Shown here: piece by piece, positions 2,340 to 36,105 of the stretch
How positions within the stretch are numbered: position 1 is the first letter of the stretch
Layout: the number at the start of each line of letters is the position of its first letter
Origin: Solirubrobacterales bacterium
GTDB lineage: Bacteria; Actinomycetota; Thermoleophilia; Solirubrobacterales; 70-9
DNA: 64,000 nucleotides
Direction of reading: 5' to 3'
NCBI GenBank assembly: GCA_025450195.1
Contig: JANWHW010000018.1
Location: forward strand, 3,174-67,173
Made by a program: the position numbers and the translations under genes
The notes under the pieces: generated by a model
Seen by the model: the letters and a program-made list of their open reading frames with translations, nothing else
The model's database searches: none
Told to the model about the DNA's origin: nothing

Positions 2340-3194
2340 ATGCGCATACAATCGCGCTGTTCCATCTGGCAAGGACGCCCGTCCGTCAACCACGGCGCTC
2401 CGCACTTGAACGCACAACACACCATCAGGCTCGCGGTAATCGACGACGACAGCGGTTTCGTGACCGTGCTCGGCAAGCGGGTCGACACAGCCGACTGGCA
2501 GAAGCGCGTGGTCGGGAGTGCGATACCCCCTGAGGAGCTGGTGGCGATGAAGCTTCATGCCCTCCTGATCGACCCGGCGGTGTTGGGGGATGGAGCATGG
2601 GACTACTTGGAGCGGGTCTGCGGAATGCTCCCCGATCTTGGCGTGATCGTCTGCACCGGCCGTTCGACGGTCGCCCAGCGGGTTCGTGCCCTTCGCTTGG
2701 GGGTCGACGACTGGATCACCAAGCCATGCCATCCCGAAGAAGCGATGGCGCGAATCGAAGCCGTCTCGCGCCGCCGCCGCCGTGCCCGCCCCCATGTGGA
2801 GGCCGGCCCTCTGGTGGCTGGGGAGCTGGAGATCCGCGCCGACCGCTTCCAGGCATTTGTCAACGGCGGCAGCCTTGACCTGACGAGGCGGGAGTTCGAG
2901 CTACTGCAACTGCTCGCCGAGTCCAGGGGCCAGGTGTTGGAGCGGGAGACGATTTACCAGCGGGTTTGGGGATATGCGATGGCACACGGCGATCGCTCGG
3001 TCGATGTCTTCATTCGCAAGCTGCGCCAAAAGCTCGAGCGCCAGTCCCCTGGTTGGGGCTACATCCACACTCATTTTGGAGTCGGCTACCGGTTTGACCC
3101 GGAGTCCACCATCGATACAGAGCTTTCCGCTTCGCGGGCCGACGAGCCGATCGATGCCACTGCGCATCAGGCCGAAGAGCTCTCTGTGCCCTAG
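2340..3194 (+). CDS. OmpR/PhoB-family response regulator (orphan; start may be the TTG at 2406)
   Basis: Receiver motifs (VIDDD, LLID, ITKP) plus a winged-helix C-terminus (LTRREFELLQLL...VDVFIRKLRQKLE...GVGYRF). No adjacent histidine kinase. Confidence 0.85.
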   Translation: MRIQSRCSIWQGRPSVNHGAPHLNAQHTIRLAVIDDDSGFVTVLGKRVDTADWQKRVVGSAIPPEELVAMKLHALLIDPAVLGDGAWDYLERVCGMLPDLGVIVCTGRSTVAQRVRALRLGVDDWITKPCHPEEAMARIEAVSRRRRRARPHVEAGPLVAGELEIRADRFQAFVNGGSLDLTRREFELLQLLAESRGQVLERETIYQRVWGYAMAHGDRSVDVFIRKLRQKLERQSPGWGYIHTHFGVGYRFDPESTIDTELSASRADEPIDATAHQAEELSVP

Positions 3195-3353
3195 GTGGGT
3201 CCAGCGAAACTCGCTAGGCCAGTAGCCATGCGGCCTCCGGGAGAGGGATCAAGAGCCACGACCCCAAGTGTGGGGGATTCTTACCCCAGAGAGGGCGGGA
3301 ACCAGCTCCTGAGCTTGAGATAGGTTCCTTGCAAGCAACCCCAGGAGGTCGGG

Positions 3354-3530
3354 ATGGCAAACGTGATGATCAAATGCCCGAACACGGGCAAACTTGTGCC
3401 CACGGGTATTGCGATGGATGCTCAGTCCTTTGCATCGGCGCAGTTGAGCAACAACGGGTTGGGAAACTGCCCTGCCTGCGGAGGCGGCCATGTTTGGAGC
3501 AAGAAGGATGCTCAGCTTGAGGAGGAGTAG
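3354..3530 (+). CDS. 58-aa zinc-ribbon mini-protein (below the ORF-track length cutoff)
   Basis: ATG preceded by AGGAGG. It translates to MANVMIKCPNTGKLVPTGIAMDAQSFASAQLSNNGLGNCPACGGGHVWSKKDAQLEEE, with CPxxG...CPxCG cysteine pairs. Confidence 0.6.
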   Translation: MANVMIKCPNTGKLVPTGIAMDAQSFASAQLSNNGLGNCPACGGGHVWSKKDAQLEEE

Positions 3531-3631
3531 CTGAACTCGCGATCCCAGTCCTAATGCGGCCTAACTGAGAGCGCCTTGCTGGCATAGCCAAGCGCCTATG
3601 GATGCCTCAAGAAGATCACTGGACTACTCGA

Positions 3632-4116
3632 TTAGTAGACCGGTTCTACTTCAACTAATCCCGTTGAGGTATCGACGGTGATTTCAAGCGTGGCGGCACC
3701 GCCCTGGCCTTCTAGCGAAAATCCGGTGCAGAGGTAATGCATGTAGCTGCGATATGACGAGCCATAGCTACACGACACTTCGTGGGCATGAGTTGGATCG
3801 CTCACTTCGACATTCGTAAGGATCTGCCGTTCCAATTGCTTCGTCGTTGCCCATTCGTCGCCGGGCTGCTTGATGATCATTTCTTCTAGATCGCGTGGTT
3901 CCTGCGGGTTTGTTGGATCCCCAAATTCTTCTCCGATTTCTTCATCAAGTTCTTCTTCGATTGCTTCTTCTTCGGCTTCGCTGAAATGAGTCTCTGATCC
4001 AGGTTCATTCGATGAGGCCTGCCAAGCGGACACCCCGACGACCAAGATGGCGAGGGCTAGAAGAGTCGCAGCGAGGAGTCTTTTTTGGCAAAGATTGAGA
4101 TCTTTCAGCCTCGTCA
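3632..4116 (-). CDS. membrane-anchored or secreted acidic protein (hypothetical)
   Basis: The ORF track runs to 4213. A GTG at 4116 gives a TM/signal anchor (LLAATLLALAILVVGVSA) followed by an acidic EEEAIEEELDEEIGEEF tract. The region is visibly lower in G+C. Confidence 0.5.
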
Positions 4117-4189
4117 CGGGCGGCAAGCTACCAGAAACGTGACTCAGAGTCCGTAGACTCGAAGTCGTCAAACTGGAAGCGTCGCGGAG

Positions 4190-4426
4190 GTGGAGAAGCA
4201 ATCCCCATCTCACTTGGCGCTGGGAGAAGCCATTAGGGAGTTCCGCCTGAAAGGCGGGCTATCCCAGGAGGCACTTGGCCTCGAAGCGGGCTTGGATCGG
4301 ACCTACATCTCTTCTGTAGAGCGAGGCTGGCGCAACATCAGCTTCGACAACCTCATCTTGATCGCCAAAACCCTTGACGTGAAGCCCGCTCGATTGCTGG
4401 CTCGCTGGGAAGAGATCGCCGGATAA
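4190..4426 (+). CDS. XRE-family helix-turn-helix transcriptional regulator
   Basis: The 78-aa sequence LGEAIREFRLKGGLSQEALGLEAGLDRTYISSVERGWRNISFDNL matches the HTH_XRE (Cro/C1) pattern. Confidence 0.8.
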   Translation: MEKQSPSHLALGEAIREFRLKGGLSQEALGLEAGLDRTYISSVERGWRNISFDNLILIAKTLDVKPARLLARWEEIAG

Positions 4427-4433
4427 CGCTGGC

Positions 4434-4673
4434 CTATTTGGCCTGAATCGCGATGCCTTCGCCCTTGTCGTCTTTGATGGTGCGGCTCCTTAGCTGCTTG
4501 CCTCTATTCCTTGCCGTCTTGTTGGCAGTGGCCAGAAAAGAGGGGGTATTCGTCATGTAGTCCTCCCCTCGGCGAAGTTCCCAGGGGGACCCATCGAGCC
4601 ATTCGTCCCAGGGGTACTTTGCCTTCGTTGGCATGTCCCCACCTGGGAATTCATCCAGCTTCTTCGCCACCAC
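4434..4673 (-). CDS. small hypothetical protein (79 aa), convergent with the XRE gene
   Basis: Clean ORF with a non-repetitive, mixed-charge composition (KYPWDEWLDGSPWELRRGEDY). No family recognised. Confidence 0.5.
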   Translation of the reverse strand: MVAKKLDEFPGGDMPTKAKYPWDEWLDGSPWELRRGEDYMTNTPSFLATANKTARNRGKQLRSRTIKDDKGEGIAIQAK

Positions 4674-4819
4674 GTTCCCCTTTTCTGGGCTGCTAATTTC
4701 ATAGCAGTTGATAGAAGACTAGCAACCTTAGCATTTGCTAGAATAGCCGTCAACAGGAAAGAAATGCCCCCGCGCTGTTTACGGCAGCCGGGGGCGCGGA
4801 CCAGAGAGTCGTTGCCTCC

Positions 4820-5941
4820 ATGGCCAAGTCGAAATTACCAACAAGATCGGTTGTGGCTGTACTCAGCCGTATCCTTGATTCCCCTGAGATCCAGGCACTG
4901 ATTGCTGAGCTTGAAGACACCCGCTGGACGGGTCGTCCTGGTTATCCAATGCGAGCGCTCGTCGGCTTGGCAATTGCAAAGTCTCTGTATCAGCGGCCCT
5001 GTTGGACCCAGATCGTGTCCCTCGCACAAGAGCACGATGCTCTGCGTCAAGCTCTCGGAGGCGAAGTTCCCTCTGTTCATGCCTGCTATCGCTTCACGAA
5101 GAAGCTGATCAAGTACAAGTCGCTTCGGGCTGATTGCGCTGATCGCTTGCTTGCGTCGCTGAAGGAGCTTCGCCCCGAGATGGGCGAGAACATCGCCATC
5201 GATGGCTCGGCTCTGCACGCCTACGCGAACGGGCATAAAACAACGATCCACAACGGACGTGAGCGGAAGCCAGAGGAGTTCAGCGATCCCGATGCCTCCT
5301 GGGGCCATCAGTCGGCGACCTCAACGGAGGGCAGGGGCCGAAGTATCTATGGCCATCGACTGCACATGGCTGCTTGCACGGCAACAGATTTGCCAGTGGC
5401 CTGGCATTTGAGCACAGCGCGCGATAGCGAGAAGCCAGTGGCCAGTGGCCTGCTCGATAAGACCCGCCAACGAGGGTTTGCCGCCCAGACCTGCGCGATG
5501 GACAAGGGTTATGACGCCGAAAGTACTTATGAGGAGTTTGAGGCTCGTGACTGCCACCCGGTCATCCCATTGATGAGGACGGGGTTCGTCAAGCAGGGGC
5601 GTCATCTACCTCATGAGTGCCGCCACGGCACCTGGGTCTTCGGGGGCAGCGACTACAAGCGCAAGGCAGCCAAGTGGCGTTGCCCCACAGGCGAATGCGA
5701 GGTCAGCAACCGTTGGGTCCCCGCCAGCCGCCTCCATACGTTGATCCCCCGCACGACTGATCGCTGGTTCAAGCTCAAAAGAGGCAGATCTTCGGTCGAG
5801 CGCGAGTTTGGACGCCTCAAGGACGGCTATGGCTTGAGGACGATCCGCGTCAGGGGGATTGAGAAAGTACGGCTACACGCCGACCTGACAATTCTGACGA
5901 GACTTGCCAGCTACCTCGCAAATAGCAGGGGTTTTCAGTGA
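4820..5941 (+). CDS. DDE transposase, IS4/IS5 superfamily (DUF772-like N-terminus)
   Basis: 373 aa with GRPGYPMRALVGLAIAKSLY (InsH-N-like), AMDKGYDAE, and the C-terminal SVEREFGRLKDGYGLRTIRVRG motif typical of this transposase superfamily. Confidence 0.85.
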   Translation: MAKSKLPTRSVVAVLSRILDSPEIQALIAELEDTRWTGRPGYPMRALVGLAIAKSLYQRPCWTQIVSLAQEHDALRQALGGEVPSVHACYRFTKKLIKYKSLRADCADRLLASLKELRPEMGENIAIDGSALHAYANGHKTTIHNGRERKPEEFSDPDASWGHQSATSTEGRGRSIYGHRLHMAACTATDLPVAWHLSTARDSEKPVASGLLDKTRQRGFAAQTCAMDKGYDAESTYEEFEARDCHPVIPLMRTGFVKQGRHLPHECRHGTWVFGGSDYKRKAAKWRCPTGECEVSNRWVPASRLHTLIPRTTDRWFKLKRGRSSVEREFGRLKDGYGLRTIRVRGIEKVRLHADLTILTRLASYLANSRGFQ

Positions 5942-5968
5942 AGTTTGGGTGGAGCGCCCATCCAAACT
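5942..5968 (+). terminator. hairpin immediately after the transposase stop codon (terminator or IS-end structure)
   Basis: AGTTTGGGTGG / CCATCCAAACT forms an 11-bp stem (one G-T pair) with a 5-nt loop. Confidence 0.35.
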
Positions 5969-5984
5969 GAGCTATAATTGCAGT

Positions 5985-6058
5985 CCACCTGTAGCTCAGT
6001 CTGGATAGAGCACTCCCGTCGCAGGGAGAGGTCGCGGGTCCGAATCCCGCCAGGTCTT
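5985..6058 (+). tRNA. tRNA-like sequence, probably a degenerate tRNA pseudogene (isotype unclear)
   Basis: There is a good D-arm (GCTCAGTCTGGATAGAGC) and T-stem (GCGGG/CCCGC). However, the top 2 acceptor pairs are mismatched, the anticodon loop has only 6 nt (GTCGCA), and the T-loop reads TCCGAAT instead of TTCGAAT. It abuts the IS end. Confidence 0.5.
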
Positions 6059-6225: not shown

Positions 6226-6289
6226 GGCTGAAGACCTACAGGTCATCTGCGAAGCGCCGCGTTTCGCTGGCACTTTCGCTGGAGCCACC

Positions 6290-6455
6290 TAGGAGGGATT
6301 AGCGAAAACCCCGCCCACGACTGGCGGCGGCGGACACGGCGCGGTTCGGCGTCCTCGGTTGGCCAAATAGCGCTGCTATTTGGCCTCCCTGCGTCCTTGC
6401 CCCGCTTGGTCCGGCGCTCGCCAGCCGCAGACACGAGTTTCGCTAATCCCTCCTA
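6290..6455. repeat. MITE-like element: 18-bp perfect terminal inverted repeats separated by 130 bp
   Basis: TAGGAGGGATTAGCGAAA (6290-6307) pairs with TTTCGCTAATCCCTCCTA (6438-6455). An internal hairpin GGCCAAATAGC-GCT-GCTATTTGGCC has an 11-bp stem. The outermost TA on each side could be a target-site duplication. Confidence 0.6.
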
Positions 6456-6460
6456 ACGGG

Positions 6461-6482
6461 CTTTTACATCCTTTTTACATCC
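6461..6482 (+). promoter_or_regulatory. Pho-box-like direct repeats upstream of pstS
   Basis: CTTTTACATCC / TTTTTACATCC are two 11-nt direct repeats (10/11 identical). TTTACA hexamers at 6463-6468 and 6474-6479 show 11-bp periodicity, about 105 nt upstream of the pstS GTG. Confidence 0.55.
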
Positions 6483-22918: not shown

Positions 22919-23054
22919 ATGCGATTGCCGGGATGCTGCGTGTGACTTAATGACGCGGTCCGGCACGGGAGCTCATTGCATCTATGGCACTGCAGACGAC
23001 TGAAAGTACGGCGGGGAGAATCCCTGCAGAGCGCTCTTTAGTGCTCAAGGCCTT

Positions 23055-23140
23055 GACAGAGCCATTAGAATTATTCGAGTTCCGAAGCACGTCGGAACTT
23101 CCAGTGGACCCGACGGGCGAATAATTCTAATGGCTCTTTC
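23055..23140. repeat. large nested inverted repeat (20-bp perfect arms)
   Basis: AGAGCCATTAGAATTATTCG (23058-23077) pairs with CGAATAATTCTAATGGCTCT (23118-23137), extendable to 23 bp with 1 mismatch. The 40-nt spacer holds a second hairpin, GTTCCGA...TCGGAAC. The sequence is A+T-rich relative to its flanks. Confidence 0.7.
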
Positions 23141-23258
23141 AAGAATGCGGCCCTTCGTTGCTATTCCGTCTGGCCCTGGTGTAGTTTCTTTCTCACGGGC
23201 TAAAGGTTTCAGAGTCTCCTAATGGCTTTACAGCCGTTTAGCCGATAAAGGAGTTGAC

Positions 23259-23426
23259 ATGGCACTTGATACCGATATCCGAGTTGCGACCAAGATCGAT
23301 AGCAACGATTTTGACGCTGCGCGGAGAGATTCCAAGGTCAACAAGCTTGTTGCCGACTCAAAGCACTACGGGAATGGCCTTCGCAAGAATGGCAAGGACC
23401 ATTCGCTGAGTCACTCCCCTAAGTAG
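23259..23426 (+). CDS. possible 55-aa basic protein (below the ORF-track cutoff)
   Basis: AAGGAG ribosome-binding site 7 nt upstream of the ATG. Translates to MALDTDIRVATKIDSNDFDAARRDSKVNKLVADSKHYGNGLRKNGKDHSLSHSPK. Its 3' end overlaps the convergent 205-aa ORF by 8 nt. Confidence 0.35.
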   Translation: MALDTDIRVATKIDSNDFDAARRDSKVNKLVADSKHYGNGLRKNGKDHSLSHSPK

Positions 23427-24036
23427 CACTTTCGCTCGCTGCCTCTAATCCTCGGTCGAATGGTCCCATATAGGGGCCCGTGAGCGGCAGGTAAAGGCGA
23501 TGCAATTCGCCTGCCTCGTCGACGGTCTGAGAGTTGCGAAGGCCCTTGTTACGCCACATCTGCTGGGTCTCCAAGTCGAATGGGTCTAAGGTGAGGATCG
23601 GGTTGCCCTGGATCCTGTTGACTTCGGTGGCTACGAAGATGGCGTGTCGCAAGGCGAGATCACCAGCACCTCCAGATGCTCGGCGATCTCGGGCTATCCA
23701 CTCGACGTGTGAGGACCCGAGTCGGCTACCCCCCTCGTGGCCCATCTGCTTCTGATGCTTCTCCGAGGTGACGATTGCCTCACCGGAGGTCAGTGCATAG
23801 AACGCCGCTATGTGGCCATGCGCGACCAAAATGCGCGTCACGCAGGTAGTTGTCTCCGCCGAGAGATCGCGGAGCCAAGCCGTTCCTTCCTGAGCTGCCT
23901 TCTCGTTTTTCGAATAGGCCTCAAACTCAGCAACTGCCTCCTTTAGCTCTTCTCGTTCCTCGGCGATCTGGAGGTTCCACTGGAACCACTCTCCGCTCTG
24001 GGCTTTCTCCAGGCTGATCTCCCAGTCCCCTGCCAC
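23419..24036 (-). CDS. hypothetical protein, C-terminal half GNAT-acetyltransferase-like by eye
   Basis: 205-aa ORF in the lower-G+C patch. HIAAFYALTSGEAIV...VEWIARDRRASGGAGDLALRHAIFVATEV...LTLDPFD resembles GNAT beta4-alpha3 and C-terminal elements. Unverified. Confidence 0.6.
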   Translation of the reverse strand: MAGDWEISLEKAQSGEWFQWNLQIAEEREELKEAVAEFEAYSKNEKAAQEGTAWLRDLSAETTTCVTRILVAHGHIAAFYALTSGEAIVTSEKHQKQMGHEGGSRLGSSHVEWIARDRRASGGAGDLALRHAIFVATEVNRIQGNPILTLDPFDLETQQMWRNKGLRNSQTVDEAGELHRLYLPLTGPYMGPFDRGLEAASESAT

Positions 24037-28558: not shown

Positions 28559-30523
28559 GTGAGCAAGAGCGAACCAGGTACGCCGCGCGCCGAGCGTTTG
28601 GCGCAGCGACGCCGTGAGTTGCCCGATTCGCCGGGGGTCTACCTCTTCTACGACAGCGACGAGGAGCTGCTCTACGTCGGCAAGGCGCGCTCGATCCGCA
28701 AGCGTGTCGCGTCGCACTTCTCAGGGGGGGAGACGCGGCTTACCTCCAGGGTGGATCGGATCGACGTCCTCGTCACGGCCACGGAGGCGGAGGCGCTGCT
28801 CGCCGAGCAGAGCTTCATTAAGCGCCATCGCCCGCGCTTCAATATCAGGCTGCGCGACGACAAGTCCTACCCCTACGTCTGCGTCAGCCTCGACGAGGCT
28901 TTCCCACGCGTCTACTTCACGCGGGAGAAGCATCGCTCCGGACGGGCCTACTTCGGCCCCTTCTCGAGCGCGAAGCGGGTGCGAGAGACCCTCGACCTGC
29001 TCGGCAAGCTCTTCCAGTTCCGAACCTGCGAGGGGGCCGAGCCGGGGCGGCGGTCCGGCAGCCCCTGCCTCGATTACTTCATCAAGCGCTGCGGGGCGCC
29101 CTGCGTCGATTACGTCAGCCCCGAGGAGTACCGGCGCAACATCGACGCGATCGTCGATTTCCTCTCCGGGCGCTATCGCCAGGTAGAGGCCGACGAGCAG
29201 GCGAAGATGGATGAGGCGGCCGCGGCGCGTGAATTCGAGCGCGCCGCGCTGCATCGGGACCGCCTCAAGGCAATCCAGTCCCTGTTCGAGCGCCAGCGGA
29301 TCGCGGGGGGCTCGGTCGGCACCGCCGACCTGATCGGGGTGGCGGCCGAGGGGACCGATGCGAACGCCCAGGTCTTCCAGGTGCGAGACGGCATCCTCGC
29401 CGAGCGCCAGAATTTCTACCTCGACAACCAATCCGAACGCGAGCCGGCCGAAGTCGCCGAGGAGTTCATCGGCCAGTACTACTCGGCTTCACCGGCGATG
29501 CCTCGGACGATCGTTGTCGGCCCGTACCTGAAGGAGAGGGCGGAGCTGTTGGCGGCCGCCCTGAGCGAGCGCCGCGGGGCCCCGGTTGAGGTGCGGGTCG
29601 CCGAGCGGGGCGACAAGCGGCGACTGCGCGAGCTGGCCGAGCGCAACGCCCGCCTTGCTCTCGATCAGGATCGCCTGCGCCGCGAGCACCGCCGCCAGCG
29701 GCGGGTCGACTCGCTGGCGGATCTGGGCGAAGCCTTAGGGATGGAAGAGCTGCCGGTGCGGATTGAGGGCTTCGACATCTCGAATCTGGGTGGCGAGCAC
29801 ACCGTTGCCTCGATGGTGGTGTTCGAGGGAGGTGCAACGAAGAAGGCCCACTACCGCCGATTTAAAATCCGCTCGCGTACTCCGCCCCCGGACACGGCCA
29901 AAGAATCAGATATGGATGGTCGTATCTCAGATATGGATGGGAATGGCCGTGTTCTCCCGCGTCCGCCGCGAGCGGGTCCTGATGACTTCGCTTCGATGGA
30001 AGAGGTTCTGGATCGGCGGGTGAACCGTTACCTGGAGCAGGTCGACCTCTCGCCCCACGATGGCAAACGAGACGAGGGCTTCGCTTCGTTGCCCTCGCTG
30101 GTGGTGATCGACGGCGGCAAGGGGCAGCTGGCGGCTGGGACCCGTGTCCTGCGCCCGTTCGTCGAGCGGGGGGCGATGGTGGTCTCACTCGCGAAGCGCT
30201 TGGAGGAGGTCTACGTTCCCGGCCGCTCGGCGCCACTTGACCTGTCCGCCGACTCCGAAGCGTCGAAGCTACTCCAGCGAGTTCGCGACGAGGCCCATCG
30301 CTTTGCCATCGAACACCATCGCGGGCGCCGGGGCCGCGCGATGACGGGTTCAGTGCTCGATGAGCTGAAGGGGATTGGGCCGGTTCGCAAGCGCGCGCTG
30401 CTCCAGCACTTCGGCTCTCCGGAGCGCTTCATGGCCGCCACCCGGGAGGAGCTCGAGGCGGTGCCCGGCGTACCTGGCAAAGTTGCTCGCGAGATCCACG
30501 AGCAACTGCACAGAACTGGCTAG
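28559..30523 (+). CDS. uvrC: excinuclease ABC subunit C (carries an in-frame insertion of about 30 aa)
   Basis: GIY-YIG N-terminus (PGVYLFYD...LYVGKA), a UVR domain, an endonuclease V-like region and an (HhH)2 C-terminus. The GTG at 28559 is preferred as the start. Confidence 0.95.
   Translation: MSKSEPGTPRAERLAQRRRELPDSPGVYLFYDSDEELLYVGKARSIRKRVASHFSGGETRLTSRVDRIDVLVTATEAEALLAEQSFIKRHRPRFNIRLRDDKSYPYVCVSLDEAFPRVYFTREKHRSGRAYFGPFSSAKRVRETLDLLGKLFQFRTCEGAEPGRRSGSPCLDYFIKRCGAPCVDYVSPEEYRRNIDAIVDFLSGRYRQVEADEQAKMDEAAAAREFERAALHRDRLKAIQSLFERQRIAGGSVGTADLIGVAAEGTDANAQVFQVRDGILAERQNFYLDNQSEREPAEVAEEFIGQYYSASPAMPRTIVVGPYLKERAELLAAALSERRGAPVEVRVAERGDKRRLRELAERNARLALDQDRLRREHRRQRRVDSLADLGEALGMEELPVRIEGFDISNLGGEHTVASMVVFEGGATKKAHYRRFKIRSRTPPPDTAKESDMDGRISDMDGNGRVLPRPPRAGPDDFASMEEVLDRRVNRYLEQVDLSPHDGKRDEGFASLPSLVVIDGGKGQLAAGTRVLRPFVERGAMVVSLAKRLEEVYVPGRSAPLDLSADSEASKLLQRVRDEAHRFAIEHHRGRRGRAMTGSVLDELKGIGPVRKRALLQHFGSPERFMAATREELEAVPGVPGKVAREIHEQLHRTG
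29877..29973 (+). repeat. in-frame inserted element inside uvrC (boundaries approximate)
   Basis: GAATCAGATATGGAT (29903-29917), with TCAGATATGGATGG duplicated at 29927-29940, then CTCCCGCGTCCG (29954-29965). Bracketed by the inverted repeat ACACGGCC/GGCCGTGT. The same two motifs occur in the same order and frame in pgk. Confidence 0.6.
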
Positions 30524-32386: not shown

Positions 32387-32520
32387 GCGCGGAGCGAGCA
32401 AGCGTCGCAGTCTGGTTCTTCGCGTCGCGAGCGAAGCGCGAAAGTTGCCGATGAGCGCGGAGCGAGCCCAATGAACGCAGTCTGGTTCTTCGCGTCGCGA
32501 GCGAAGCGCGAGAGTTGCCA
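32383..32520 (+). repeat. tandem direct repeat (68 + 70 bp), each unit containing the palindromic REP-like core
   Basis: The units start with ATGAGCGCGGAGCGAGC at 32383 and 32451. They share GCAGTCTGGTTCTTCGCGTCGCGAGCGAAGCGCGA(A/G)AGTTGCC(G/A). A third ATGAG at 32521 is the permease start. Confidence 0.85.
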
Positions 32521-33282
32521 ATGAGTCTCGTCCTGCACCAGCTCCGCTACGACCAGAAGGCCTTCTGGCGCAATCCCGCTGCGGTCTTCTTCACCGTCAT
32601 GTTCCCGGTCATCTTGCTGCTGATTTTCGCGACCGTCTTCGGGGACCAGACGATCGACACCGGCGACGGCATCGATGCGACCGCCTATTACGTGCCGGCG
32701 ATCATCACCCTCTCGGTTATATCGGCGACGATGCAGACGCTGGCGATGTCGCTGGTGATCGCTCGCGAGGACGGCCGCCTCAAGCGAGGCCGAGGCACGC
32801 CAATGCCCGCTTGGGTGTTCATCGCCGGCCGGATCGGCAACTCGGTCGTCGTCGCGGTGCTGATGCTCGCCCTCGTGGCGGCGATAGGCAAGGTCATATA
32901 CGGGGTGCCGATTCCCTGGGGCCAGATACCGGAGCTGCTCGCGGTGCTGGCGGTGGGCGCGGCGTCGTTCTGCTGCCTCGGGATCGCCCTCACGGCTGCG
33001 ATTCCCTCCCAGGACGCGGCGGCGGCCATCATCAACGCCCTGCTGCTGCCTCTGTACTTCCTCTCGGGCATCTTCATCCCCGACAGTGAGCTCCCAGCCG
33101 GCGTCATCGACTTTGCCAACCACTTCCCGATCCGGCACTTCTTCGAGGCGTTCTTCGACGCCTACGAGAGCGGCTCCGCCGTGGCCTGGGGGGACCTCGC
33201 GGTCGTCGCTGCCTGGGGCCTCGCCGGCCTTGCGATCGCGATTCGCTACTTCCGCTGGACCCCGCGGGCTGACAGACGCTGA
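32521..33282 (+). CDS. ABC-2-type exporter permease
   Basis: Six-TM hydrophobic protein after the ATPase. The ATG at 32521 is preferred over the ORF-track start at 32515. Confidence 0.85.
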   Translation: MSLVLHQLRYDQKAFWRNPAAVFFTVMFPVILLLIFATVFGDQTIDTGDGIDATAYYVPAIITLSVISATMQTLAMSLVIAREDGRLKRGRGTPMPAWVFIAGRIGNSVVVAVLMLALVAAIGKVIYGVPIPWGQIPELLAVLAVGAASFCCLGIALTAAIPSQDAAAAIINALLLPLYFLSGIFIPDSELPAGVIDFANHFPIRHFFEAFFDAYESGSAVAWGDLAVVAAWGLAGLAIAIRYFRWTPRADRR

Positions 33283-34833: not shown

Positions 34834-36105
34834 ATGTCGAGATTCTCCAAGGCAAGCGTCCGCGATGCCGATGTGGCGGGCAAGCGGGTGCTGGTTCGCG
34901 TTGACTTCAATGTGCCTCTTACAAAACCCACCGCCTCCTCTGCTCCCGGGAGCCCGGAGGAATCAGACATGGATCCGGGCTCCCTCCCGCGTCCGGGGGC
35001 GGCGGGGCTTCAGGTTGCCGATGACACCCGCATCCGGGCTGCGCTGCCGACAATCGAACTGCTGCGAGATCGAGGTGCGTCCGTGGTGCTCGTCTCCCAC
35101 CTGGGGCGGCCGAAGGGGAAGGTCGACCCGGAGCTCTCTATGCGACCGGTGGGAGAGCGCCTGGCGGAGCTGCTGGGCGCCCCGGTCAGCCAGGCGCCGG
35201 CCGTGATCGGCGAGGACATCGAGACGATGGCCAGGGGTCTCGGTCCAGGGGGCGTGCTGCTGCTGGAGAACGTTCGCTTCGAGCAGGGCGAGACGGAGAA
35301 CGACCCAGAGTTGGCCACAGCTCTGGCCGGGCTGGGGGACATCTACGTGAACGACGCCTTTGGGGCCGCCCATCGCGCCCACGCCAGCACCGAGGGCGTG
35401 GCGCACCATCTGCCCGCCTACGCCGGCCTCTTGCTCGAGCGGGAGGTAACCGAGCTGACCGCGGTGGTCGAGTCTCCATCCCGTTCTCTGGTCGTCGTCC
35501 TCGGTGGCGCCAAGGTCTCCGACAAGGTTGGGGTGATCGAGCGCTTCCTGGAGATCGCCGACCGAATCCTGATCGGCGGCGCGATGTGTTTCAGTTTCTT
35601 CCGGTCGCAGGGGATTGAGACCGGGGACTCGCTGGTGGAGGAGGAGGGCGTGAAGCTGGCCGCCGAGGCGCTGGAGCGGGCTCAGTCCTCCGATTGCGAG
35701 CTGATGCTGCCGGTCGATCTAGTGCTTGGGAGGAGCTTCGATGCCGGTACGGAGACCAGCGAGGGCGACGGCGTCGAGGTGCCGGAGGGCTGGATGGGTC
35801 TCGATATCGGCCCGAAGACGGCCGCCGCATACGCCGAAGCGATTGCCTCGGCGGGAACCGTGCTCTGGAACGGGCCGATGGGCGCCTTCGAGCTGGAGCC
35901 CTTCGCGGCGGGGACTCGGACTATCGCCGAGGCGATCGCCTCAGCACCCGGGACGACGGTGCTGGGCGGTGGCGACTCGGTTGCCGCCATGCAGCAGTTC
36001 GGGCTTGCTGACAAGGTGGACTGGCTATCGACCGGAGGAGGAGCCTCGTTGGAGCTGTTGGAGGGAAAGAAGCTGCCGGGAGTGGAGGCCTTGATCGATG
36101 CCTAG
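34834..36105 (+). CDS. pgk: phosphoglycerate kinase (carries an in-frame insertion of about 25 aa)
   Basis: RVDFNVPL...DDTRIRAALPTI...SHLGRPKG...GGGDS motifs. Confidence 0.95.
   Translation: MSRFSKASVRDADVAGKRVLVRVDFNVPLTKPTASSAPGSPEESDMDPGSLPRPGAAGLQVADDTRIRAALPTIELLRDRGASVVLVSHLGRPKGKVDPELSMRPVGERLAELLGAPVSQAPAVIGEDIETMARGLGPGGVLLLENVRFEQGETENDPELATALAGLGDIYVNDAFGAAHRAHASTEGVAHHLPAYAGLLLEREVTELTAVVESPSRSLVVVLGGAKVSDKVGVIERFLEIADRILIGGAMCFSFFRSQGIETGDSLVEEEGVKLAAEALERAQSSDCELMLPVDLVLGRSFDAGTETSEGDGVEVPEGWMGLDIGPKTAAAYAEAIASAGTVLWNGPMGAFELEPFAAGTRTIAEAIASAPGTTVLGGGDSVAAMQQFGLADKVDWLSTGGGASLELLEGKKLPGVEALIDA
34921..35008 (+). repeat. in-frame inserted element inside pgk (boundaries approximate)
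   Basis: GAATCAGACATGGAT (34960-34974) lies in the loop of the 10-bp hairpin GGGAGCCCGG (34948-34957) / CCGGGCTCCC (34975-34984), followed by CTCCCGCGTCCG (34984-34995). It matches the uvrC insert. Confidence 0.6.

Follow-up and report, generated by a model that had tools for sequence, protein, structure and literature searches.

An in-frame insert in a Solirubrobacterales phosphoglycerate kinase gene is one copy of an interspersed 84-85-bp hairpin repeat

Introduction

We study a 64,000-nucleotide stretch of DNA from a Solirubrobacterales bacterium (assembly GCA_025450195.1, contig JANWHW010000018.1, positions 3,174 to 67,173 of the forward strand; hereafter the window, with position 1 as its first letter), and in particular a 28-codon insert in its phosphoglycerate kinase gene, pgk. 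We find that this insert is one copy of an undescribed interspersed 84-85-bp hairpin repeat that is confined to Solirubrobacterales. The reading that we favour, with a probability of roughly 0.7, is that the element is a non-autonomous mobile DNA hairpin, similar in kind to repetitive extragenic palindromic (REP) sequences and to Rickettsia palindromic elements (RPEs), and that it is a passenger in Pgk, tolerated there as a disordered surface loop. An earlier sequence-only reading of the window had noticed the extra loop in Pgk, had linked it to an insert in uvrC, and had attributed the differing stems of the two to selection on structure or to a common palindromic-element origin. In what follows we lay out the evidence for the repeat family, weigh the other explanations of its distribution, and compare the element with known systems.

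Results

The pgk insert and its copy in uvrC

The host gene (34834-36105, + strand) lies in the gene order gap-pgk-tpiA-gpmI and encodes a protein of 423 amino acids with a match to the Pfam family PGK (PF00162). Close Pgk orthologues are mostly 395 residues long and read DFNVPL-DGGRV-ADDTRI at the same site, and thus the insert measures 28 codons (84 nt); the loop noticed earlier is real, but its size had been put at about 26 residues. Outside the insert the window Pgk is 80-87% identical to orthologues. The element spans codons 30-58, at the tip of the beta-hairpin between NVPL and DDTRI. In an AlphaFold2 model of the window Pgk, residues 36-56 have a predicted local distance difference test score (pLDDT) below 50 and carry no secondary structure, with most of the remainder modelled confidently; the model thus predicts a disordered loop at a beta-turn.

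A covariance model of the family aligns over its full length with the insert (34922-35007, 88.8 bits, model positions 1-87 of 87). This model was built from 54 copies, all of them in genomes other than that of the window. Read along the + strand, the pgk copy begins with an AT-rich leader, ACAAAA (34921-34926), which codes for Thr-Lys. It is followed by the left arm of an outer stem, CCCACCGCC-T-CC (34927-34938), which the covariance-model alignment pairs with the right arm, GG-G-GGCGGCGGG (34995-35006); this stem contains one A.C mismatch and a T.G pair that is nearly invariant in the family. Inside the outer stem lie two family-conserved internal loops, TCTGCTCCCG on the left (34939-34948) and CTCCCGCGTCC on the right (34984-34994, coding for L-P-R-P), and these enclose a copy-specific inner stem whose arms, GGAGCCCGGA (34949-34958) and TCCGGGCTCC (34974-34983), are given both by folding and by the covariance model. 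The hairpin loop GGAATCAGACATGGA (34959-34973) contains the family motif TCAGAYATGGA and codes for E-S-D-M-D. Relative to the orthologous copies L072 and L096, where the inner stem is GGACCCCGGA/TCCGGGGTCC, one pair is altered on both sides. The fold energy of the insert is -50.6 kcal/mol (z = -3.1).

Much of this anatomy had been read correctly from the letters: the stem GGGAGCCCGG (34948-34957) / CCGGGCTCCC (34975-34984), the 17-nt loop AGGAATCAGACATGGAT (34958-34974) and the trailing 12-mer CTCCCGCGTCCG (34984-34995) are all found where they had been placed. A palindrome that had been listed with them, GCTCCCGGGAGC at 34941-34952, is likewise present, but it is incidental to the element: it arises at the junction of a conserved GCTCCCG with the pgk copy's own stem and is absent from other copies.

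The second copy in the window lies in uvrC (29862-29976, +), where the covariance model matches positions 29871-29973 with 47.7 bits (E = 4e-9), and on folding the two inserts adopt the same nested hairpin. The uvrC copy belongs to a subfamily with a variant outer stem, CCGCTCGCG/CGCGAGCGG, and has the inner stem GACACGGCCA/TGGCCGTGTT. Its loop carries nine extra residues, ISDMDGNGR (29917-29944, about 27 nt, with 28 nt left unaligned in the model); this extra segment includes a second TCAGATATGGATGG, and the orthologous uvrC copies L061 and L074 lack the duplication. Since a model trained on foreign copies recognises both inserts, we agree with the proposal that they are two copies of one element. 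The individual motifs on which that proposal stood differ in weight. The loop motif recurs in uvrC at 29901-29917 with two mismatches, against a chance expectation of 0.06, and none of 100 shuffles gave two occurrences. The 12-mer recurs exactly (29954-29965), but alone it is not significant, with 2.06 occurrences expected when one mismatch is allowed and two reached in 58 of 100 shuffles.

The only other match of the covariance model in the window is a loop fragment at its very start (1-18, - strand, 13.8 bits). The reverse complement of the loop motif had been reported there, and it is there, but in a copy that belongs to a diverged sister family. What the window holds is the right-hand part of this relative, cut by the window edge (1-52, -), in which a CTTCGCGC...GCGCGAAG hairpin adjoins the loop motif GATCAGATATGGAC; on the parent contig this relative is complete (L128:3158-3241, -) and reaches 27 bits (E about 1e-3). 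The second family is marked by the hairpin CTTCGCGC / TTCGCTCGCG / GCGCGAAG followed by (G/A)A(T/C)CAGA..., and the window-start copy keeps the TCAGATATGGA loop. It is homologous to two repeats at 32406-32455 and 32476-32525, which together make up a tandem duplication of 70 nt occupying the space between an ABC-transporter ATPase gene and the permease gene.

An interspersed family confined to Solirubrobacterales

We scanned one genome per bacterial or archaeal species for the pattern TCAGAYATGGA-N(5-35)-CTCCCGCGTCCG, which fixes 22 bases in two blocks. The scan returns at least 119 stretches, where by our own estimate about 4 are expected by chance. Nearly all lie in Solirubrobacterales metagenome-assembled genomes (MAGs), and some on complete chromosomes. 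From the matches listed we parsed 118 copies, to which all counts out of 118 refer. The shared oligomers are frequent in these genomes only as members of the repeat family. The two-block pattern has zero matches among viral contigs, and the canonical copy has zero among plasmids. The 118 copies fall into 74 distinct flank clusters, and 12 stem sequences each occur at 2-7 unrelated loci, which argues that sub-lineages defined by their stems have been copied to new places. One contig with a copy, L028 (JBLMYD010000007.1), is labelled Chloroflexota; its copy and flanks are orthologous to those of the Solirubrobacterales loci L041, L043 and L108, and the Chloroflexota label of this MAG contig probably reflects wrong binning.

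These numbers bear on the simplest alternative, that we are looking at a chance likeness of GC-rich, low-complexity sequence or at an assembly artefact. The weakness of the 12-mer on its own in the window is what such an account has in its favour. The rarity of the loop motif, the two-block stretches and covariance-model E-values of 1e-9 to 1e-23 speak against chance. As for an artefact, the same contig is present in independent assemblies, one at NCBI (GCA_036560605.1, DATBQX010000010.1) and one in the JGI metagenome 3300035693, in addition to the copies on complete chromosomes. We give this alternative almost no credence.

Variable helices, constant unpaired segments

The consensus of the family reads A-W-W-W-N / CCGCCGCC-T-CC / TCTGCTCCCG / 10-nt arm / (A)AGAA-TCAGATATGGA / 10-nt arm / CTCCCGCGTCC / GG-G-GGCGGCGG(G). 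Each copy is an asymmetric three-tier hairpin, made up of an AT-rich leader, an outer stem of 9-12 bp, two C/T-rich internal loops that RNAalifold joins by a 3-bp helix, an inner stem of 10 bp, and a conserved terminal loop of 15-16 nt, GAATCAGATATGGA, of the form (A)AGAATCAGATATGGA. The leader stands out from its surroundings: positions -15 to -12 before the outer stem are about 80% A/T across the 118 copies, in genomes of about 66% GC. Within the left internal loop, the segment CTCTGCTCCCG, which lies outside the search pattern, is identical in 81 copies and one base off in the rest. The conserved blocks also contain two direct GCTCCCG repeats about 47 nt apart.

The stems behave in the opposite way, in that their sequence varies among sub-lineages and their complementarity is kept. 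The right inner arm takes 81 different sequences among the 118 copies, yet the inner arms form 9.47 of 10 Watson-Crick pairs within copies, compared to 4.58 when arms from different copies are combined. In an ungapped alignment of the 54 copies behind the model, 91.9% of cells are paired versus 74.6% in shuffles, and sliding the partner by one column lowers pairing to 48-49%. Taken separately, the inner stem is paired in 96.5% of cells and all 10 of its pairs have changed on both sides; in the outer stem 7 of 12 pairs covary, and the T.G pair is present in 53 of the 54 copies. RNAalifold independently recovers the same helices. The covariation of all ten inner pairs bears out the explanation that the sequence-only reading had offered for the differing stems of pgk and uvrC, and a common palindromic-element origin for the two inserts is right.

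Covariation in two helices, together with conservation of what stays unpaired, is classically taken to mark a functional RNA, and it is natural to ask whether the family is a structured RNA that acts in cis on mRNA (in its processing or stability, in translational coupling, as a ribosome-binding-site cassette, or as a terminator without a U-tract) and that spread because it is useful, its coding copies being side effects. The composition of the helices is not what this account leads us to expect: G-U pairs fill 2 of 540 cells of the variable stem, a scarcity that is uncommon in RNA helices but is to be expected where DNA pairs with DNA. Rfam likewise gives no overlap with the copies at the gathering threshold in the window, and zero matches even at E <= 1 in loci L011 and L087. 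We return to this possibility below with the data on gene neighbourhood and orientation.

Copies inside genes

In 26 of the 118 cases the copy is read through in frame with coding sequence on both sides. This test missed pgk copies near the N-terminus, and one of the 26 hosts is doubtful, so that the share of copies inside genes is roughly a fifth to a quarter. The doubtful host, L098, is an open reading frame (ORF) with no Pfam match and odd codon statistics; most likely it is a spurious ORF on the antisense strand. Copies are found in at least 11 families of host proteins. Those recognised by Pfam are Dxs, an SdhB-like Fe-S subunit, an MMPL transporter, IleRS (at two sites), HisF, an AidB-like acyl-CoA dehydrogenase and a PMT_2 glycosyltransferase, and to these we add Pgk, UvrC, the N-terminus of NuoE and the C-terminus of an aminotransferase. 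A forward and a reverse copy in SdhB, which we had considered as occupants of the same site, lie at different positions in one variable linker.

The peptide is conserved for each orientation: forward coding copies always read ...AASSAP..ESDMD..SLPRPGAAG, and reverse ones always ...PAAPGRGSE..SISDS..AGAEEAA. Most frames are usually open, five of six in 78-110 of the 118 copies, but a single forward frame (F0, ESDMD) is used in all 9 independent forward hosts (p about 1.5e-4) and a single reverse frame (SISDS) in five hosts. The peptides of the used frames are small, hydrophilic and acidic, whereas the unused frames would code for Arg-rich or hydrophobic ones. Length matters as well: copies of the 84-nt class, equal to 28 codons, lie in genes in 19 of 57 cases, and those of the 85-nt class in 6 of 56 (Fisher p = 0.006). 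From the enrichment of the 84-nt class, the single frame per orientation, the hydrophilic peptide and the predicted disordered loop, we infer that coding copies survive because selection filters them. A padded 44-residue profile of the forward peptide found no match at E <= 10 in a set of 5.8 billion proteins, where the motif is too short to reach significance; therefore our estimate of host breadth rests on DNA loci.

The recurrence of one peptide suggests a different explanation, namely that ESDMD...LPRP is a functional module, a linear motif that Pgk and UvrC acquired independently. It is true that a similar peptide appears in Pgk, UvrC, Dxs, IleRS, HisF and others, with one frame per orientation. 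However, at the same sites the reverse orientation codes for the unrelated PGRGSE..SISDS..AGAEEAA, and the likeness is found at the level of nucleotides, in non-coding copies too. The peptide is moreover predicted to be disordered, most orthologues do without it, and its scars are tolerated. There is nothing in support of a role for the peptide itself, and we regard the module as very improbable.

Empty, flipped and scarred sites

The orthologues of Pgk show what can happen at one such site. Among the best 120 listed, 99 are empty, 9 are full, 3 are scarred and 9 are unclassified. Empty sites have the DNA CTG GAT GGC GGC AGG GTC. Occupied sites come as class A, ...AASSAPGTPEESDMDPxSLPRPGAAG, or class B, ...PAAPGRGSEGxSISDSxxxAGAEEAAE, and at this shared site the DNA of class B corresponds exactly to the reverse complement of class A, read in another open frame. 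Some further sequences have short, odd-looking inserts. Two of these, L126 and L127, are class B copies with the centre deleted; a third, P0028, looks, judging by the peptide alone, like an A-type scar. All loop-bearing Pgk genes whose DNA we read carry the element, forward or reverse complemented, and the remaining loop-bearing sequences show its forward or reverse peptide; loop-free orthologues have a 5-residue turn. Among the genes read as DNA, none encodes the loop by other nucleotides, an outcome that would have spoken against a common element in pgk and uvrC. When Pgk sequences stripped of the insert are placed in a neighbour-joining tree, one clade contains a mixture of classes A and B.

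IleRS site 2 behaves like the pgk site, with forward copies (L013, L029) and reverse copies (L032, L078, L120) at the same position; only these two sites, pgk and ileS site 2, are counted as carrying both orientations. L029 and L078 have in common the inner stem CAACGGCGGA and an uncommon outer stem, CGGCCG[C/T]C, and the AT-rich leader flips along with the element in reverse copies. The shared stems and the flipped leader argue that a copy was inverted in place, or excised and put back. By simple arithmetic, inverting an 84-bp unit whose first base is the second of a codon turns the ESDMD frame into the SISDS frame, and in pgk the first base of such a unit would be 34922, the position at which the model alignment begins.

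Scars consisting of an arm and the leader only are found in Pgk (L126, 1085-1135; L127, 1085-1130) and at IleRS site 1 (L029), and a UvrC orthologue has the comparably shortened segment KVRFRPRAQLPRAGG. One example, ...GGAGGCGGCGGAATATG, codes for EAAEY and persists as coding sequence, so decayed copies leave behind short lineage-specific protein inserts. A metagenome scan for an empty pgk allele, with the pgk flanks of the species as anchors around a gap of 10-40 nt, gave 36 matches, all of them distant pgk genes at most 69% identical. Because the element is flipped, partly deleted or absent in related lineages, and given the frames, lengths and predicted disorder of coding copies, we infer that in pgk it is a tolerated passenger and not a functional module of the enzyme.

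The same site histories bear on the idea that the repeat is a host-level DNA site, a cruciform or folded strand that serves nucleoid organisation, replication, repair or self-marking and is kept by selection. Such a site could act independently of orientation, in keeping with the near-even orientations reported below; its stems would be Watson-Crick only, as they are; the two direct GCTCCCG repeats would be at home in it; and orthologous copies do persist across species-level genomes. On the other hand, occupancy is patchy even per site. The counts for Pgk are matched by those for UvrC, where the 120 closest orthologues comprise 75 with the native short RVRGERSNGS-type sequence, 25 with an intact forward copy, about 10 with a decayed copy and none with a reverse copy, or 75 empty versus about 35 occupied. 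Copies decay and are deleted without replacement, and a required site would be unexpected in the coding sequence of essential enzymes. We consider this explanation rather improbable, and hold to the view that the element is a mobile passenger.

Copies between genes

Outside genes, copies occur in either orientation and mostly fit tightly between the stop codon of one gene and the start codon of the next; the whole intercistronic gap is often occupied by the element. Among 83 non-coding copies, a forward gene's stop lies within about 11 nt of the left end in 31, the start of a reverse-strand gene lies within about 11 nt of the left end in 25 (within 7 nt in 23), and a forward gene's start lies no more than 25 nt from the right end in 34. 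All told, 56 of the 83 adjoin a gene stop or start within about 11 nt. Relative to co-directional neighbours, 36 copies are forward and 23 reverse (p = 0.12); inside genes the orientation is about even, 13 to 13.

The reverse copies point to a possible secondary use. On the reverse strand the internal loop and outer arm read CGGGAGCAGAGGAGGCGGCG, with a start codon 2-3 nt past the arm, so that intergenic reverse copies place AGAGGAGG, with its GGAGG, about 9 nt before the ATG. The 2-3 nt distance is seen in 17 copies, ten of which represent one orthologous locus (L017, L033, L036, L055, L056, L070, L089, L104, L105 and L122 are among the copies concerned, with others). In the largest orthologous set, the unforced internal loop doubles as the Shine-Dalgarno sequence of the downstream gene. 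Some intergenic reverse copies may have been co-opted as ribosome-binding sites.

In favour of a structured RNA as the origin of the whole family are also the closeness to gene starts and stops, the reverse-strand Shine-Dalgarno sequence, an anti-Shine-Dalgarno-like CCTCCT on the forward strand, and an unforced internal loop that is conserved above the coding flank in orthologous sets. Yet the orientations are mixed, with both found at the same site, and one strand-specific RNA function cannot account for this. The decay of the loop motif in UvrC and the scarcity of G-U pairs point the same way. We therefore think an RNA element unlikely as an account of the family, and continue with the reading of a mobile DNA hairpin.

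How the element might move

Because the stems vary, the unpaired segments are constant, there is no target-site duplication and there is no constant terminal inverted repeat, we suggest that a trans-acting enzyme would recognise the folded single strand, as in the REP/RAYT (REP-associated tyrosine transposase) system, at the ends of IS200/IS605 insertion sequences and at integron attC sites. A classical cut-and-paste miniature inverted-repeat transposable element (MITE) fits less well. In a search for target-site duplications of k = 2-6 at all boundary offsets, the best result was a 2-mer in 18 of 118 copies, compared to 8.7 in controls, with no majority at any setting.

Taking this one step further, Solirubrobacterales could have an undescribed mobilisation system that acts on single strands and is guided by their structure, with the family as its substrate; we make this proposal tentatively and consider it possible rather than likely. 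Its enzyme would read the three constant unpaired segments and the conserved T.G (or a bulged T), with helices of any sequence; insertion would proceed without target duplication, beside a sequence that resembles an outer arm, and the element could be flipped in place. Unoccupied sites do resemble the outer arm of the resident copy, with GGCGGC in pgk (L125:1080-1100), GGCGGCCG in ileS site 2 (L039) and CGCGGCCCGCG in uvrC (L005), although the sites number three, hexamers rich in GC are frequent in such genomes, and two of the 'empty' ones are perhaps old scars. We treat the likeness as a lead only: it may reflect homology-guided target choice, an old scar, or coincidence in GC-rich DNA.

Several observations weigh against a mobile passenger. 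No transposase or parent insertion sequence is found in about 1 Mb of loci, and the inverted pairs of copies in L050, L079 and L121, which enclose purQ, ddl and nuoD/E, have no transposase or RAYT there. The analysis yielded no strain-level pair of filled and empty sites, and movement is deduced from distribution. The pgk site is occupied in several separated branches of the Pgk tree, a recurrence that needs strong target specificity, repeated loss, or allele exchange. The exact-match pattern through which the DNA sample was collected favours intact loops, and in UvrC, an unbiased sample, about 10 of 35 copies have an altered loop motif. The case for strong purifying selection acting on the loops, which we had considered, is thereby weakened, since the DNA sample required intact loops and the UvrC set shows decay. 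Lastly, in orthologous copies between genes the unforced internal loop is 0.94-1.00 identical, with their stems at about 0.73 and the coding flank at about 0.77; this constraint after insertion hints at a host-level or RNA-level function for at least some copies. In the largest of these orthologous sets the loop is, as noted, also a Shine-Dalgarno sequence, and the sample leaned towards intact copies.

Other observations in the window

Two further regions of the window depart from its average composition. Positions 3001-6000 have a GC content of 0.56-0.59 versus about 0.66 and contain a gene for an HTH_31-type regulator; the region ends at a weak tRNA (5987-6055, 38 bits), past which lies an inverted repeat of 44 nt with 75% complementarity (6283-6326 / 6419-6462). 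This region may be an integrated element. At 23001-24000 the GC content is low (0.554), and a 26-nt AT-rich inverted repeat (23052-23077 / 23118-23143, 96% complementary, CTTGACAGAGCCATTAGAATTATTCG) lies just upstream of an Abi_alpha-domain gene; no ORF with high GC3 was called at about 20.5-24.1 kb.

Discussion

To our knowledge, large-scale documentation of palindromic repeats inserted in frame into housekeeping genes has so far come mainly from Rickettsia, with its reduced intracellular genome. The family described here is a second clear case, in free-living, high-GC soil Actinomycetota, and its anatomy is more resolved, with filters on length class and reading frame and with a decay series that leads from a full copy to a flipped copy to a scar. 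As a result, the rules by which a mobile hairpin survives inside an enzyme become testable, and there is a concrete structure with which to look for the enzyme that moves it. There is also a practical warning for annotation: 'signature inserts' of 25-30 residues in Solirubrobacterales proteins may be repeat DNA instead of protein features specific to a lineage. If the tentative mobilisation system proves true, it would be an ongoing source of surface loops, N- and C-terminal extensions and ribosome-binding sites in core genes, in one of the most abundant orders of soil bacteria. Our literature search turned up no paper connecting genera of Solirubrobacterales with REPs, MITEs or palindromic repeats, and a paper on signature indels in Thermoleophilia does not mention Pgk, UvrC or IleRS.

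Several known systems share part of this behaviour. Mycobacterial interspersed repetitive units (MIRUs), also actinobacterial, occupy the gaps between the cistrons of operons, where they abut or overlap the stops and starts of genes, and the element fills such gaps too; but MIRUs are tandem direct repeats and not palindromic, and are not known as in-frame inserts in both orientations. Integron attC sites are recombination sites of about 60-140 bp defined by how their single strand folds; the stems vary, conservation is limited to short motifs, and bases that are unpaired or extrahelical set the choice of strand. The nearly invariant T.G (or bulged T) of the element is reminiscent of these, a likeness of logic only, since its copies lie outside cassette arrays, have no adjoining integrase and also occur inside genes.

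REP sequences are interspersed palindromes found mostly between the genes of operons, without target-site duplication, and for them recognition of a folded single strand is plausible. They are 20-40 nt long and extragenic, with a conserved 5' tetranucleotide of the GTAG type and with stems that are conserved within a genome. The element resembles them in lying mostly between genes, in lacking a target-site duplication and in having conserved unpaired bases beside a hairpin, but it is 84-85 nt long, has two helices of variable sequence, and a fifth or more of its copies are coding. By eye, and with no formal motif scan, we see no GTAG in the consensus or at the 5' ends of the copies inspected.

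A transposase-binding terminal inverted repeat would be constant, whereas the terminal arms of the element vary by compensatory change (GCCGCC, GCCATC, GGCAGC, CCCGCG and others). This sets it apart from MITEs, as do the missing target-site duplication and an unpaired AT-rich leader at one end only. Like the MITEs Correia/NEMIS, ERIC and Nezha, it is small, non-coding in itself, non-autonomous and hairpin-forming, and is dispersed in many copies at unrelated loci; prokaryotic MITEs sometimes form in-frame fusions and can supply regulatory signals to their neighbours (PMC10969869). Membership in either the MITEs or the REPs fails because there is no target-site duplication, the termini are variable, no GTAG is seen in the consensus or the inspected copies, and the element is not extragenic and measures 84-85 nt.

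The closest known behaviour is that of the RPEs. These often lie in frame in unrelated metabolic and housekeeping genes, to which they add a conserved peptide that is thought to sit where the fold is undisturbed, and their movement is unexplained (PMC10969869). Both families are short palindromic repeats without a known transposase that are found in frame in many unrelated ORFs, each with its conserved peptide. The likeness is one of behaviour, by description, in a Solirubrobacterales host, and we do not claim membership in the same sequence family. The host here belongs to a free-living, high-GC order of soil actinomycetes and not to the obligate intracellular alpha-proteobacteria, and the element is 84-85 bp long versus about 100-150 bp for RPEs. 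What the Solirubrobacterales element adds to the comparison is a resolved hairpin, with covarying stems, invariant loops, and both orientations at the same codon position.

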